Positions 1-18,214 of a DNA stretch of 60,908 nt are shown here, one piece after another. A program made the translations under genes and the position numbers. The DNA lies in NCBI GenBank assembly GCA_904502095.1, contig CAJGDG010000003.1, positions 1 to 60,908 on the forward strand. Reading direction: 5' to 3'. Below the pieces are notes generated by a model. It saw only the letters and a list, made by a program, of their open reading frames with translations, was not told where the DNA came from and did not search any database. Numbering within the stretch: position 1 is the stretch's first letter; each line of letters starts with the position of its first letter. Origin of the DNA: an uncultured Alphaproteobacteria bacterium (lineage in GTDB: Bacteria > Pseudomonadota > Alphaproteobacteria > Rs-D84).

Positions 1-8
1 AAACTATA

Positions 9-118
9 ATGCTCAGAAAATAGCGGGCTTATTCAATATATTCACCGCCCTCCAACCATGTTGGTTGGAGATATTTTCTGCCTTCGCAGGCACTGAGCAT
101 AAACGGGTTTCGACGCCC
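9..118 (-). ncRNA. Leader-RNA motif copy 1 (four-helix junction; candidate riboswitch or attenuator aptamer). Its expression platform and regulated gene lie left of the window.
   Basis: Minus-strand helices: P1 ATGCTCAG/CTGAGCAT (plus coords 93-100 / 9-16), P2 TGCCT-GCGA-AGGCA, P3 CTCCAACCA-ACA-TGGTTGGAG, and P4 around an invariant 15-nt loop GAATATATTGAATAA. The same architecture with compensatory changes occurs at 10446-10551. Confidence 0.55.
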
Positions 119-441
119 AACACAGCAATCGCCATGTCAAAGTATATACTACACCAAAAAATGACAAAAATCAAATGTTCAACAAAACAAGGTGGGGGTA
201 TGGTATTGTTATATGGTATGTAAATAACATGTGCGGGTATGCTGTTGGTATATGTTGGCGTGACAGGTGGTAGGGTATGTGTGGAGCATTAAAGAAATAC
301 CGCCCACAATGGGGCGGTTCTTTACAACGGTTTTTGTGCCAATATTTCGCCAATGCTTATCAGCATATCACACCCCTGCCCTAAAACCCATAGGAGCCTT
401 TTCCAAACAAAAAAATCGTCACATCCGTGACGATTAATTTT

Positions 442-3477: not shown

Positions 3478-3482
3478 ATCTA

Positions 3483-3502
3483 CCGCCCATTTGGGCGGTT
3501 TT
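3483..3502 (+). terminator. Intrinsic terminator after the P-type ATPase
   Basis: Hairpin CCGCCCA-TT-TGGGCGG followed by TTTT, 6 nt after the stop codon. Confidence 0.7.
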
Positions 3503-8641: not shown

Positions 8642-8662
8642 AAAAACCGCCCAATCGGGCGG
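8642..8662 (-). terminator. Terminator of the 10383-8678 operon
   Basis: Minus strand reads CCGCCC-GATT-GGGCGG followed by TTTTT. Confidence 0.7.
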
Positions 8663-8677
8663 TTCGTTTTGATACCA

Positions 8678-9412
8678 CTAGTTAAAAGTACATACCCAGC
8701 CATCACGTGTAATCTGTGGCAACACCGGTTCTTTTTCACAAAACTTTACAGCATTTTGCGCACTGGCATCTAATTGCTCCAAAGAAACCGTACTGCCATC
8801 GCACACCAAGACTGTTCGCGCTTGACTTATAGAGGCCCATGCATTAGTGCAACCATTTTTTTTCAAGACCTCCTTTAAACAATCCTGTCTAAAAAGTTTT
8901 TCGGTGGCACTAGCCGGAGATGGACCTTTTATATTACCCGCAGGATAAACTTTCCTTAATGACTTTAAAAAACTATACGCATCGCTTTGTGATGTCTTGT
9001 TTCCTTTAGTCGCCTGTTGTTCTTCCATTTGATATTTTAAAGCGTAAACAGTCAAAGACACACAATAACCGCTAACCATTTCTTCGGTCACACTCCTATT
9101 AAATGCATGTTTTAAATTCATACATTCATCATACGCTTCCATGACCGAAACATGAAGCACGTTTCTTTCTTTGTTCCAATACTTCTGCTTCAACTTAACT
9201 ATAAAATTCTCAAACTCCGATTTAGGCACATTTAATTTTTGCGACACATTTGAATTATTATACGCATTCTCAAAAGATTGATACACAATGTCCACTTTCG
9301 TGTTGAGCTTCATTTTGTTAAATTCGTCTTGTGTCACAATCAGTTCGTCTGCCTGTACAGACAACGAGCCAACAAAGCATAAACAAACAGCTGTTAGTAA
9401 AATCTTTTTCAT
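8678..9412 (-). CDS. Secreted hypothetical protein (about 244 aa, 8 Cys)
   Basis: Signal peptide MKKILLTAVCLCFVGSLSVQA. Its ATG overlaps the upstream stop as TAATG. Confidence 0.65.
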   Translation of the reverse strand: MKKILLTAVCLCFVGSLSVQADELIVTQDEFNKMKLNTKVDIVYQSFENAYNNSNVSQKLNVPKSEFENFIVKLKQKYWNKERNVLHVSVMEAYDECMNLKHAFNRSVTEEMVSGYCVSLTVYALKYQMEEQQATKGNKTSQSDAYSFLKSLRKVYPAGNIKGPSPASATEKLFRQDCLKEVLKKNGCTNAWASISQARTVLVCDGSTVSLEQLDASAQNAVKFCEKEPVLPQITRDGWVCTFN

Positions 9413-10383
9413 TATTTTAATGCCTCCTCGCACTGTTCTGCGGTTTCAATTACGCGTTTAGCCGCGGATATTTGGGTTGCGTTAAACACTGTCGATGTTA
9501 ATGAGGCCGCTGTTGTCACGCCCGCCAATACATTTGATGCAGTGTTTAAATTTTTCGCTTTTTCTGCGTTTTCACGCGTCTGGTCTGTGTTTGCAATCCC
9601 AGATGTTATTGTCCCTGCAAGGCCTGTGGCCGCACCAATGCCACTGGATACAGTTGCCCCAGTCGCGCGTGCGTTAATTTTTTTGACATCTTCCAGATTA
9701 TATTTATTACATGCGCTGATGACTTTGTCTGCGTGCGCAATTTCTTCGTCAGTTGCACTGCCATCCAAAGATGCCTGCGTCTTCATATAAGACAATGTTT
9801 GTATCGCGCCGGCGCATGCGCCAATTTGCGTAATTAAATCTGTTTTTACTTGGTTTATACCAGAAATCACTGCACCAGCGATGTTGGTCGCCGTGGCAGT
9901 CGCCATCAATCCTGTGCGCGCATCACCAAGTTTTTTGGATTTTTCTTCTAATTCTTTTTGTTGTTTCTCTAAGTCGGCCAGATTTGTTGTTGTGCCATCT
10001 ACATTATCCTCAGACACACTAAGCTGTTGTCTTGCATACTGCTCTAATTCTTGTTGCAACTGTCCGGGATTTGTGTCTGCAGGCAATGGATTTGGGCGTG
10101 GAGTCGCCGCCTTTATCCTCTCAATTTCTTTGCGGATATCATCCAATTCTTCATCCGTACCGGTTTTCACAACACCAACAGCCGTCGCGCCACCACCGAC
10201 AGCCGTACCAACAGCGGACACCGCAGTACCAACCCCAGCAAGTTTTTTTATATCATTTAATTGTTCGGAAATTCCACTGCAATGTTTGCGTGCGTTTGCC
10301 ATTGCATCGACCAATGACTTTTCATCTGCCCCAAACGCATTATTTGCAATAAGCAGCAAAGACGACAAAAACATTAATTTCAA
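9412..10383 (-). CDS. Secreted protein with Gly/Ala/Thr-rich segments and a central coiled-coil-like region
   Basis: The predicted start is TTG at 10383, 5 nt after AAGGAGG, giving MKLMFLSSLLLIANNAFG. An alternative ATG lies at 10374. Glycine-zipper-like stretches are AVSAVGTAVGGGATAVGVV and SSGIGAATGLAGTITSGI. Confidence 0.65.
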   Translation of the reverse strand: MKLMFLSSLLLIANNAFGADEKSLVDAMANARKHCSGISEQLNDIKKLAGVGTAVSAVGTAVGGGATAVGVVKTGTDEELDDIRKEIERIKAATPRPNPLPADTNPGQLQQELEQYARQQLSVSEDNVDGTTTNLADLEKQQKELEEKSKKLGDARTGLMATATATNIAGAVISGINQVKTDLITQIGACAGAIQTLSYMKTQASLDGSATDEEIAHADKVISACNKYNLEDVKKINARATGATVSSGIGAATGLAGTITSGIANTDQTRENAEKAKNLNTASNVLAGVTTAASLTSTVFNATQISAAKRVIETAEQCEEALK

Positions 10384-10402
10384 CACATCCTCCTTTTTGA
10401 AT

Positions 10403-10572
10403 AAAAAAACCACCAAAAAATACAGGTGGTTGGAGTTTAAGAACAATGTTGAGAATTGCGTGTGTTATTCAATATATTCCACACACTCCAACCACGTTCA
10501 TGGTTGGATTTTTCATCTTTTTACAGACGCTCAACATGGGTTCTTAAGCCCATCGACAGAATTCCTGTCGAC
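10403..10572 (-). promoter_or_regulatory. Leader-RNA motif copy 2 plus terminator/antiterminator platform (candidate transcriptional riboswitch or attenuator)
   Basis: P1 ATGTTGAG/CTCAACAT encloses three hairpins: P2 CGTCT-GTAAAA-AGATG, P3 TCCAACCA-TGAACG-TGGTTGGA, and P4 GTGTGTG-[GAATATATTGAATAA]-CACACGC. A terminator AACCACC-N10-GGTGGTT plus U-tract follows. Its 5' flank CTCCAACCAC is the exact complement of the P3 3' arm. Confidence 0.6.
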
Positions 10573-10611
10573 AAAGTAATATTATCACATTTTTATTCAT
10601 AAAACAATTAT

Positions 10612-10633
10612 AAAAAACCGCCCAATCGGGCGG
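10612..10633 (-). terminator. Terminator after rpsI
   Basis: Minus strand reads CCGCCC-GATT-GGGCGG followed by TTTTTT. Confidence 0.7.
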
Positions 10634-10656
10634 TTTGAAAAAGGTGTTCCAAACGA

Positions 10657-11756: not shown

Positions 11757-18214
<6,458 letters not shown>

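Follow-up and report, generated by a model that had tools for sequence, protein, structure and literature searches.

The window, i.e., the whole 60,908-nt stretch of DNA that was analyzed, carries on its minus strand a two-gene unit (8678 to 10395) that opens with the Shine-Dalgarno (SD) sequence AAGGAGG (10389-10395). The first gene, running from a UUG at 10383 to 9412, encodes a 323-aa signal-peptide protein; the second overlaps the first, ends at 8678, and also encodes a signal-peptide protein. A terminator at 8644-8665 closes the unit before rho. Upstream of the SD, positions 10403 to 10607 of the same strand comprise a promoter, an ~145-nt multi-helix RNA, and an intrinsic terminator. The promoter (10579-10607) consists of a −35 box (TTGTTT, 10602-10607), a 17-nt spacer, and a −10 box (TAATAT, 10579-10584), and a TATAAT-like −10 box is at least 90% conserved at the matching position in 122 aligned copies of the element. 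Transcription probably starts near G10572, a site predicted from the sequence. The predicted fold of the window leader has a minimum free energy of −66.4 kcal/mol (z = −7.1), and none of 200 shuffled sequences was as stable. A previous sequence-only reading of this locus had described a four-helix leader RNA upstream of a secreted-protein operon. The gene context was correctly recognized, and the listed parts (5′ hairpin, GGG-N8-CCC box, P1 to P4, terminator, and SD) are all where that reading placed them. The four helices do exist, but the description lacked the P0 helix with its pseudoknot, the Px hairpin, and the internal-loop nature of P4.

From 5′ to 3′, the promoter is followed by hairpin H0, a GGGG/CCCC hairpin (G-hairpin) with site a in its loop, site b, hairpin P2, strand X1 (CUCCAACC), strand Y (GGUUGGAG), hairpin P4, hairpin Px with site b′ in its loop, site a′, strand X2 (CUCCAACC), and the terminator. 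In the window copy, all on the minus strand, H0 (GUCGACAG-GAAUU-CUGUCGAU, 3′ arm CUGUCGA(U); 10552-10572) occupies a position at which nearly all copies have a hairpin, with sequences that differ between copies. The G-hairpin (10538-10551) pairs GGG (10549-10551) with CCC (10538-10540), and its stem covaries across the family (GAGG/CCUC, GGAA/UUCC, GUGG/CCAC, and GCGAG/CUCGC). What had been noted as a GGGC-N7-CCC box is present and proves to be this covarying hairpin, whose loop CUUAAGAA (10541-10548) is the a1-like site a, i.e., the 5′ strand of P0 that pairs with a′. The b1-like site b (AUGUUGAG, 10530-10537) is the 5′ strand of P1 and pairs with b′ (CUCAACAU, 10446-10453) in a helix that covaries. 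The covarying hairpin P2 (CGUCU-GUAAAA-AGAUG, 10514-10529) is missing from a subtype found upstream of "MVVLVDA" HTH genes; it is followed by an A-rich joiner (10509-10513). P3 (10486-10508), which is conserved in sequence, is formed by X1 (UCCAACCA, 10501-10508), a loop, and Y (UGGUUGGAG, 10486-10494), and the earlier version of it, UCCAACCA/UGGUUGGA at 10487-10508, is indeed present. P4 (GUGUGUG/CACACGC, 10458-10486) has a covarying stem and a 15-nt loop (GAAUAUAUUGAAUAA, 10465-10479) that represents a conserved internal loop, GAAUAA/AAAUAA, in reduced form; relatives have a variable distal hairpin between the two AAUAA halves. The alternative hairpin Px (10444-10458) joins CAAU (10455-10458) to AUUG (10444-10447) and holds b′ in its loop. 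Its pair 243-276 is UA67/AU32 in A3 and AU60/UA8 in A4. Since the linker measures only 0 to 1 nt, Px and P1 are expected to be mutually exclusive. P0 is the outer helix around P1, pairing CUUAAGAAC (10540-10548) with a′ (GUUCUUAA, 10437-10444), and all eight of its pairs show changes on both sides; because its 5′ strand is the loop of the covarying G-hairpin, P0 is a pseudoknot. X2 (A+CUCCAACC, 10428-10436) pairs with Y as the antiterminator, and its AACC begins the intrinsic terminator (10403-10431), which consists of AACCACC (10425-10431), a 10-nt loop, GGUGGUU (10408-10414), and a U tract reaching 10403.

Searches recovered more than 200 homologues of this leader, and all those whose source was read belong to gut metagenome-assembled genomes (MAGs) of Rs-D84/Enterousia or to unlabeled metagenome contigs. 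At least 125 copies come from GTDB MAGs, and 76 more were retrieved from metagenome contigs without use of the P4 loop; four pattern matches in the latter (L136, L144, L160, and L204) were discarded as unrelated palindromic tandem repeats. The leader is a multicopy element of tiny-genome gut Alphaproteobacteria (Candidatus Enterousia, order Rs-D84). The search pattern itself imposed much of the conservation of Y, X2, and the P4 loop in the first set, and in the retrieval of the second set, X1, Y, and X2 were the fixed parts. Owing to misaligned P1 and P2 columns, RNAalifold detected only H0 and the antiterminator in the raw MAFFT alignment, and a handmade structure with covariance-model realignment was then used. 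On this basis, the positions paired in the fold that permits termination (fold T) were 93.5% paired in the first set, with 865 double changes against 252 in shuffles and a score of 0.537 against 0.16 (0 of 500 shuffles), and 92.2% paired in the second, independently retrieved set (436 double changes against 122). The antiterminator fold (fold AT) together with the G-hairpin reached 94.9% pairing, with 76 double changes against 21 and, again, 0 of 500 shuffles. The covariation analysis that the sequence-only reading had called for thus came out in its favor, all helices covarying in both sets. The invariant nucleotides are found mostly in one internal loop and in the three strands that can pair with one another.

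Start codons lie a median of 50 nt past X2, within 30 to 70 nt in 100 of 117 cases, and all copies examined have an open reading frame (ORF) downstream in the same orientation. The downstream genes are heterogeneous, with small XRE-like HTH proteins in 38 of 117 cases, Cys-rich secreted proteins, and others. Homologues of the first window protein stand behind the same leader in five further loci (L029, L031, L039, L092, and the viral contig L121). Copies are mostly chromosomal, in Rs-D84 alphaproteobacterial hosts, and only 4 IMG/VR contigs contain the element. A weak copy (L124, 34 bits) lies upstream of a 392-aa ORF that by eye resembles a putative antirepressor (BRO/KilAC-like).

The window itself contains a second copy (1-142, minus strand), which scored 87.2 bits over covariance-model positions 1 to 133. 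The earlier claim of such a copy was right as to its existence; it had been placed at 9-118, and its 3′ end is in fact missing, as the window edge falls a few bases into a′. Near-identical full versions in two other loci (L107 and L104) stood in for the sequence past this edge, and there X2, the terminator, an SD, and a small ORF come next, which in L107 encodes a 140-aa lipoprotein-like product. The multicopy state, a DNA palindrome (TCCAACC...GGTTGGA), the identical 21-nt terminators flanking the window cassette, and the few copies on viral contigs might together suggest mobile or repetitive DNA of the MITE/REP kind, or a palindromic protein operator, with no function as RNA. We consider this highly improbable, given that pairing is kept despite near-complete sequence divergence, including G-U pairs that are sensible only in RNA, that copies keep a constant orientation and distance relative to start codons, and that the 61 kb hold only two copies, both in leaders. 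The element is hence not a repeat scattered regardless of gene starts, an outcome that would have spoken against the leader proposed earlier, but a folded leader RNA, strongly conserved and equipped with a terminator/antiterminator switch.

The switch centers on the P3 3′ arm Y, which is able to pair with either the upstream (X1) or the downstream (X2) copy of its complement. The 10-mer complementarity on which the sequence-only reading had based its terminator/antiterminator logic is exact (CUCCAACCAC is the perfect complement of GUGGUUGGAG), and the family bears this logic out. Specifically, the terminator 5′ arm starts within X2 in 115 of 121 copies, compared with 11 of 109 control positions. 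The Y:X2 helix, which RNAalifold also picks, is 98.5% paired, and its ninth pair (GC81/UA18/UG4/AU2) gives the antiterminator a covariation of its own. Rare coordinated changes affect X1, Y, and X2 together in two loci (L024 and L011) and Y with X2 in another (L008), and G-hairpin pairing persists where its pairing with X2 would break. The leader thus has the two predicted alternative folds, both backed by covariation, and a riboswitch-type expression platform in which terminator and antiterminator are mutually exclusive. In a thermodynamic comparison that ignores pseudoknots and tertiary contacts, the non-AT fold was the more stable one in 113 of 122 copies.

We consequently favor, at a probability of roughly three in four, the view that the element heads its own transcription unit as a 5′ leader and acts as a transcription attenuator built on a c4-module architecture (a1/b1 plus three-way junction), with termination, read-through, and any processing being deduced from sequence and folding. 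In fold T, a:a′ (the pseudoknot with the G-hairpin loop), b:b′ (P1), and X1:Y (P3) would make up a four-way junction, leaving X2 free so that the terminator forms and the genes are off. In fold AT, Y would pair with X2 over 9 bp around P4 and Px in a three-way junction like those of c4 and sRNA-Xcc1, and the resulting loss of the terminator 5′ arm would let transcription read through. Fold T is presumably the default, given its stability advantage of ~8 kcal/mol and the fact that b′ is transcribed before Px is able to close; read-through would then require a factor that blocks the cis pairing of a/b or X1 or that stabilizes the three-way junction. As the trigger, we rank first, although tentatively, a common protein or tertiary partner that recognizes the invariant P4 GAAUAA/AAAUAA loop and the A-rich joiner. 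A trans-acting c4-like RNA with matching a′/b′ sites, as in phage P1, comes second by analogy and is a somewhat weaker candidate. A small-molecule ligand appears less probable still, and the same holds for constitutive damping that responds to no signal. Several additional contacts were also considered. Pairing of the P4 loop UUGAAUAA with UUAUUCAA past the window U tract was not enriched across the family (27 matches against 22.5 ± 4.1 in shuffles), inspection of the loop variants gave no consistent complement in the A-rich joiner or the H0 loop, and a leader peptide was discarded because no conserved ORF with an SD in front of it was evident on inspection and the helices vary in length by steps that would break a reading frame.

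A metabolite or ion riboswitch, in line with the riboswitch option of the sequence-only reading, would make the four-way junction and pseudoknot an aptamer in which the ligand locks P1/P3 and thereby causes termination. Much of the anatomy would suit this explanation: several helices meet in a compact junction that includes a pseudoknot, there is an A-rich joiner, the internal loop of P4 is invariant, and a classic terminator/antiterminator platform is present; so would the many copies per genome, as with second-messenger riboswitches, and the failure to match any known class. Against it, the genes downstream (XRE-like HTH proteins, secreted or surface proteins, and scattered others) form no metabolic pathway and point to no ligand, the invariant nucleotides fall mostly outside the junction cores, and the architecture is that of an antisense-RNA module, which needs no ligand. 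We therefore regard a riboswitch as unlikely; with an a1/b1 and c4 architecture, an RNA- or protein-driven switch is at least as likely.

The a/b pairing is copy specific: 92 of 114 copies are compatible with themselves, compared with 57 of 12,882 cross pairs. Three loci (L008, L042, and L063) contain tandem copies with common a/b codes, those of L008 being only 49% identical overall, and three others (L040, L114, and L115) have junction-only second copies with their own promoter, of which that in L114 still has a b′ matching the neighboring copy. Such arrangements, together with the promoter and terminator that each copy owns and the likeness to known trans-acting RNAs, are what one would expect of independent trans-acting sRNAs of the c4, IsrK, or sRNA-Xcc1 type that use a′/b′ or the CCUCC strand as seeds and for which the position upstream of genes is secondary. 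This role is compatible with one in cis, but as the primary function it is rather doubtful. Every copy examined is followed by its co-oriented ORF with an SD ~10 to 25 nt past the U tract, too close for another promoter to fit in between; only in a switch do the decoy X1 and the covarying alternative pairing Y:X2 have a meaning; a′/b′ would be sequestered in cis in the default fold; and no target copies of a/b were found downstream.

Within the attenuator model, the same specificity allows a more speculative extension, to which we assign low odds, namely that each copy is an RNA-only, address-coded bistable switch. The three-way-junction RNA from read-through transcripts would bind a/b on nascent transcripts from that locus or its tandem partner, prevent the fold that permits termination, and so keep the locus on. 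Copy-specific a/b pairing, the common codes of the L008 tandem, and the b′ match of the L114 junction-only copy are weak hints in this direction. If true, this would amount to heritable, phase-variation-like on/off control, locus by locus, of surface proteins and small regulators in a gut symbiont that has a reduced genome and few transcription factors.

Rs-D84/Enterousia genomes measure <1 Mb, and these bacteria are believed to rely on other cells (PMC12306168). Because one leader precedes many genes for secreted or surface proteins and small regulators, it is probably a main control system for how these bacteria interact with their partners. The leader-bearing regions of the gut MAGs currently have no annotation, and the element offers a new, well-supported RNA family for Rfam and for structural and ligand work, with more than 200 members, heavy covariation, two predicted folds, and a pseudoknot.

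A search of the literature on conserved sequences and on structured RNAs in these bacteria returned nothing relevant. The Rfam search proposed in the sequence-only reading likewise gave no confident match in the window or in other loci: nothing passed the gathering threshold in the window or in 18 loci, and screening of the window, both copies, and 26 loci at gathering and E-value thresholds revealed only subthreshold matches to sRNA-Xcc1 and c4-a1b1. The label "unrecognised" is accordingly accurate as regards Rfam families at threshold, yet the element has the a1/b1 and c4 architecture of phage P1 immI. The sRNA-Xcc1 model (RF02221; gathering score, 53) matched the 3′ half in L051, L004, and L091 with 40, 35.1, and 33.9 bits and an E value of 4.8e-6 in a 201-nt search, and c4-a1b1 (RF03163; threshold, 46.7) matched the 5′ part with 28.7 bits in L036 and 21.2 bits in L051. 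These matches occurred in the correct order and strand. The window copy gave no sRNA-Xcc1 or c4 match at an E value of ≤10, and no match to c4 (RF01695) was reported in the loci tested. As the c4 likeness rests on subthreshold matches in some members and none for the window copy, convergence is also possible.

The best sequence-plus-structure match to the leader is sRNA-Xcc1, an integron, transposon, and genomic-island sRNA of Xanthomonas and Xylella. Both have a 9-bp outer stem, a first hairpin that has AAUA in its loop and contains an insertion, a second hairpin, a 6-nt joiner, and a CC-rich tail with a U run; sRNA-Xcc1 is likewise multicopy and lies upstream of symE in integron cassettes. 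Unlike the leader, it is described as a trans-acting RNA of ~87 nt from another host clade, and its descriptions include no 5′ a1/b1 module, decoy strand, or switch. The resemblance suggests that sRNA-Xcc1-type RNAs located upstream of genes elsewhere may be leaders too.

The c4 and c4-a1b1 RNAs (phage P1/P7 immI; RF01695 and RF03163) display the same order of a promoter −10 box, hairpin 1, hairpin 2 with a1 in its loop, and b1, in which H0 would correspond to hairpin 1 and the G-hairpin to hairpin 2. In P1 immI, the hairpin 2 loop holds a1, and b1 follows directly on the 3′ side of this hairpin; b′ is located within a hairpin loop and a′ within the 3′ strand of the junction (PMC2864571). The c4 RNA is characterized by its release as a ~77-nt RNA through RNase P processing and by its action in trans. 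The leader has a corresponding three-way junction, with the Y:X2 outer stem around P4 and Px aligning to the sRNA-Xcc1 consensus structure, and its b′ (second hairpin loop) and a′ (3′ junction strand) occupy positions identical to those immI sites. It differs from c4 in an extra P2 hairpin and a decoy X1 that offers an alternative partner to the outer-stem 5′ strand, in the conserved GAAUAA/AAAUAA internal loop of the first hairpin where c4 has a stable tetraloop, in an intrinsic terminator where c4 uses Rho-dependent polarity, and in downstream genes for XRE-like regulators and secreted proteins in place of the icd/ant prophage immunity context. The a2/b2 sites near the downstream ribosome-binding site (RBS), a hallmark of c4, were not found: the longest word shared with the copy's own downstream 100 nt averaged 4.68 for b and 4.35 for a, against 4.59 and 4.28 in the cross-copy control, and this family-wide result also dismissed "UGUUGA" at the window start codon as a site of that type. 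Weinberg et al. noted some c4 RNAs whose outer stem overlaps a terminator with its 3′ half and raised c4-type attenuation in cis as a possibility only (PMC2864571). The leader suggests that linking the phage c4 module (a1/b1 plus three-way junction) to an intrinsic terminator can turn it into an attenuator of general use in cis.

In SAM-I-type riboswitches, too, a closing helix and junction favor the terminator, an alternative helix sequesters the terminator 5′ arm, and a pseudoknot connects a hairpin loop to a distal strand. The leader shares this logic but has no sequence or model similarity to them and no coherent metabolic regulon, and its antiterminator uses the P3 3′ arm, whereas SAM-I-type switches use the P1 3′ strand. 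Collectively, these comparisons identify the leader, by analogy, as a variant of the c4 antisense-RNA module architecture that is absent from Rfam, rather than as a proven metabolite riboswitch.

Read on the minus strand from window position 10607 to 10381, the sequence presents, in order, a promoter (-35 TTGTTT, 17 nt, -10 TAATAT), the leader RNA, a terminator, a Shine-Dalgarno (SD) sequence, and a start codon. The leader opens with the 5′ hairpin H0 (10572-10552) and a GGG-loop-CCC hairpin (10551-10538), followed by the 5′ strand of P1 (AUGUUGAG), P2 and an A-rich joiner, P3 (UCCAACCA / UGGUUGGA), and P4 (GUGUGUG / CACACGC with GAAUAUAUUGAAUAA). The P1 3′ strand (CUCAACAU) is continued by GUUCUUAA and A-CUCCAACC, the terminator AACCACC-N10-GGUGGUU-U7, and AAGGAGG with a UUG/GUG start. 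The leader parts noted in a sequence-only reading are confirmed on this strand, and the predicted fold contains an additional outer helix, CUUAAGAAC : GUUCUUAA, which that reading had overlooked. The 181-nt window RNA folds at -66.4 kcal/mol versus -37.2 ± 4.1 for shuffles (z = -7.1), and a covariance model search of the 60.9-kb window returned exactly two copies, both on the minus strand, at 10428-10574 (113.7 bits) and at 1-142 (87.2 bits; cut by the window edge).

Upstream of the leader lie rplM and rpsI, which have a terminator of their own, and a 1702-aa ORF (11757-16865, minus) directly upstream of rplM. Downstream, two signal-peptide proteins without a Pfam family are followed by a terminator and by rho, which is also found downstream of a leader copy in the related loci L069 and L093. 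Identical 21-nt terminator hairpins (AACCGCCCGATTGGGCGGTTT) at 8644-8664 and 10615-10635 (minus) flank the promoter-leader-two-gene unit, one ending rpsI and the other ending the unit before rho; a similar terminator occurs at 3481-3501 (plus). This arrangement suggests a cassette that was either inserted between rpsI and rho or swapped through recombination at its flanking terminators. The copy at 1-142 adjoins a tRNA gene (445-518, minus), and tRNA genes often lie within ∼100 to 300 nt of leader copies elsewhere (L110, 448-521; L074, 5060-5133; L044, 1424-1494). Integrated elements typically sit close to tRNA genes.

Scanning one genome per GTDB species for the exact pattern of P3 3′ arm plus P4 loop matched at least 120 loci. 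Record titles among the matches listed were all of gut-derived MAGs (rumen, colon, chicken, and human gut), with labels including Candidatus Enterousia, "Alphaproteobacteria," "Rickettsiales," and "proteobacterium"; several listed loci share one MAG of origin. Enterousia falls within the order Rs-D84, whose members carry genomes smaller than 1 Mb and are regarded as likely obligate symbionts or parasites (PMC12306168). A covariance model built from 31 copies found 115 copies in the first 100 loci (L001-L100) and 29 more in the remaining loci and viral contigs. An independent second retrieval from JGI metagenomes, demanding the P3 5′ arm (X1), its 3′ arm (Y), and the downstream strand overlapping the terminator 5′ arm (X2), but not the P4 loop, yielded 76 full-length model matches. 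Five metagenome contigs (L136, L144, L155, L160, and L204) that matched the search pattern through chance sequence likeness were rejected as unrelated tandem arrays of ∼30- to 47-nt palindromic repeats with CTCCAACCC...GGGTTGGAG. The leader is also present on four predicted viral contigs from IMG/VR (L121, 12017-13164; L122; L123; L124). On L121 the gene after it encodes a homologue of the 323-aa secreted protein of the window, with DNA methylase- and PLD-like ORFs recognized nearby by eye, and L124 carries a weak copy before a 392-aa ORF that, by eye, is a putative antirepressor.

The structure of the element is under selection. In the 115-sequence alignment, the four-way-junction fold combining P0 (the a:a′ helix), P1 (b:b′), P2, P3, and P4 was 93.5% paired, with 865 cells altered on both sides (shuffles, 252 ± 17). 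The covariation score of this fold (0.537) compares with 0.160 for shuffles, none of 500 reaching the observed value, and ∼0.06 for slid partners. Every pair varies in P0, P1, P2, and P4, while P3 is conserved in sequence. The covariation was replicated in the metagenome set (92.2% paired; double changes, 436 versus 122; score, 0.447 versus 0.146). A cross-copy control showed a/a′ and b/b′ to be copy specific, with self-compatibility in 92 of 114 copies versus 57 of 12882 cross combinations.

Three further helices were jointly 94.9% paired (double changes, 76 versus 21; 0/500 shuffles). The first, the G-hairpin (GGGG/CCCC), carries the P0 5′ strand in its loop and covaries (GAGG/CCUC, GGAA/UUCC, GUGG/CCAC, CAGG/CCUG, GCGAG/CUCGC), including in copies whose changes would disrupt pairing between the G run and the X2 CUC. 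Given a first loop of 1 nt, a second stem of 7 to 8 bp, and no second loop, standard pseudoknot geometry would allow the G-hairpin and P0 to form together, as an H-type pseudoknot. The second, Px (CUAU/AUAG or CAAU/AUUG), has the P1 3′ strand as its loop; its pair 243-276 is UA67/AU32, and AU60/UA8 in the second set. With a linker of only 0 to 1 nt leading into its 3′ arm, Px and an 8-bp P1 would be mutually exclusive. The third is the antiterminator, Y (GGUUGGAG plus one base) with X2 (one base plus CUCCAACC), which is 98.5% paired with a ninth pair GC81/UA18/UG4/AU2. Copies escaping the pattern alter their pairing strands in concert, namely, CUCCUGACC / GGUCAGGAG / CCUCCUGAC in L024, CUUCUGCC / GGCAGGAG / CUCCUGCC in L011, and GAUUGGAG / CUCCAAUC in L008. 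Covariation supports two alternative folds of the element that cannot form together, and in one of them the terminator loses its 5′ arm.

A TATAAT-like box is conserved ∼8 nt before H0 in at least 90% of copies. A terminator 5′ arm starting inside X2 (at AACC) and followed by a U tract is found in 115 of 121 copies versus 11 of 109 control positions. The first SD-preceded start codon lies at a median of 50 nt from X2 (IQR, 45 to 54; 30 to 70 nt in 100/117), too close to leave space for a further promoter. Standard energy parameters favor the X2-free fold over the forced antiterminator in 113 of 122 copies (mean difference, 8.4 kcal/mol), and termination is thus the predicted default. Read-through would need a factor blocking a/b or X1, or stabilizing the three-way junction. 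Tandem copies share a/b codes (L008, 6907-7294, at 49% overall identity; L042, 732-1147; L063, 2362-2736), and some second copies in L040, L114, and L115 are reduced to the three-way junction, with their own promoter and a b′ still matching the upstream copy. These features hint at RNA-RNA cross-talk, or could reflect recent duplication.

In the loop-unconstrained set, P4 consists of a proximal stem, an internal loop (5′-GAAUAA...AAAUAA-3′), and a variable, covarying distal hairpin, which is lost in the Enterousia form GAAUA-UAUU-GAAUAA (compare L008). The GAA/UAA juxtaposition is reminiscent of UAA/GAN, an internal-loop motif that engages in long-range A-minor contacts. Invariance of this internal loop points to a common partner, possibly a protein, a tertiary receptor, or a ligand pocket; pairing of the P4 loop with downstream sequence was not detectable.

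The 117 downstream genes revealed no metabolic theme. Two families of small XRE-like HTH proteins (26 genes, 70 to 95 aa; 12 genes, 60 to 75 aa), with weak matches to Pfam HTH_19 and HTH_3, are mostly monocistronic, and a P2-less leader subtype accompanies the "MVVLVDA..." HTH family. A third small-protein family accounts for 6 genes, Cys-rich secreted proteins, some with the Listeria-Bacteroides repeat, for 19, and the family of the 323-aa protein for 5. The remainder are mostly singletons with signal-peptide-like N termini, a feature of at least 35 of the 52 downstream proteins of ≥100 aa.

The element is a real, well-supported new RNA family. The earlier interpretation, a riboswitch-like switch of no known class, is borne out in part: the switch is real, its being a riboswitch is unproven, and c4 and sRNA-Xcc1 are probable relatives. 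The proposed Rfam search (Rfam 15) gave no match at gathering thresholds for the window or 18 loci and no credible hit to the window copies at E ≤ 10, but other members produced sub-threshold matches in the correct order and strand. RF02221 (sRNA-Xcc1) matches the 3′ half, Y-P4-Px-a′-X2 (L051, 40 bits, E = 4.8e-6 in a 201-nt search; L004, 35.1; L091, 33.9; gathering score, 53), and RF03163 (c4-a1b1) matches the -10 box, H0, and G-hairpin (L036, 28.7 bits; L051, 21.2; gathering score, 46.7). By these families' own thresholds, the element is not a member of either.

The alternative fold of the element coincides exactly with the consensus structure of sRNA-Xcc1, in which an outer stem of 9 bp encloses first a hairpin whose loop is AAUA-rich, then another hairpin and a joiner of 6 nt. 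sRNA-Xcc1 is multicopy in Xylella, and in integron cassettes of Xanthomonas it is located upstream of symE. Of the two promoter-proximal hairpins in the annotated immI region of phage P1, the second holds a1 (UUGACAG) in its loop, with b1 just 3′; this two-hairpin a1b1 motif was described by Weinberg et al. (PMC2864571 supplement), who also noted that a terminator overlaps the outer-stem 3′ half in some c4 RNAs. The 77-nt c4 RNA of P1 comprises an outer stem, a UUCG hairpin, and a hairpin with b′ in its loop, a′ preceding the outer-stem 3′ half. This topology is that of the element, P0 corresponding to a1:a′ and P1 to b1:b′. By eye, GUUACGCCC, upstream of the c4 5′ end in phage P1 (L125, 225-262), is similar to GUCACGUCC, the 3′ strand of the outer stem. 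It might base-pair with GGGCGU, the 5′ strand of c4, and is a candidate counterpart of the decoy X1. Unlike c4, the element lacks downstream a2/b2 repeats, adds P2 and X1, has an intrinsic terminator and a conserved internal loop in P4, and differs in downstream genes and hosts. On these likenesses and differences, we treat it as working like the c4/sRNA-Xcc1 group and as probably related to it: a predicted cis-acting terminator switch with c4-like architecture that would control small regulators and secreted proteins in a gut lineage with reduced genomes.
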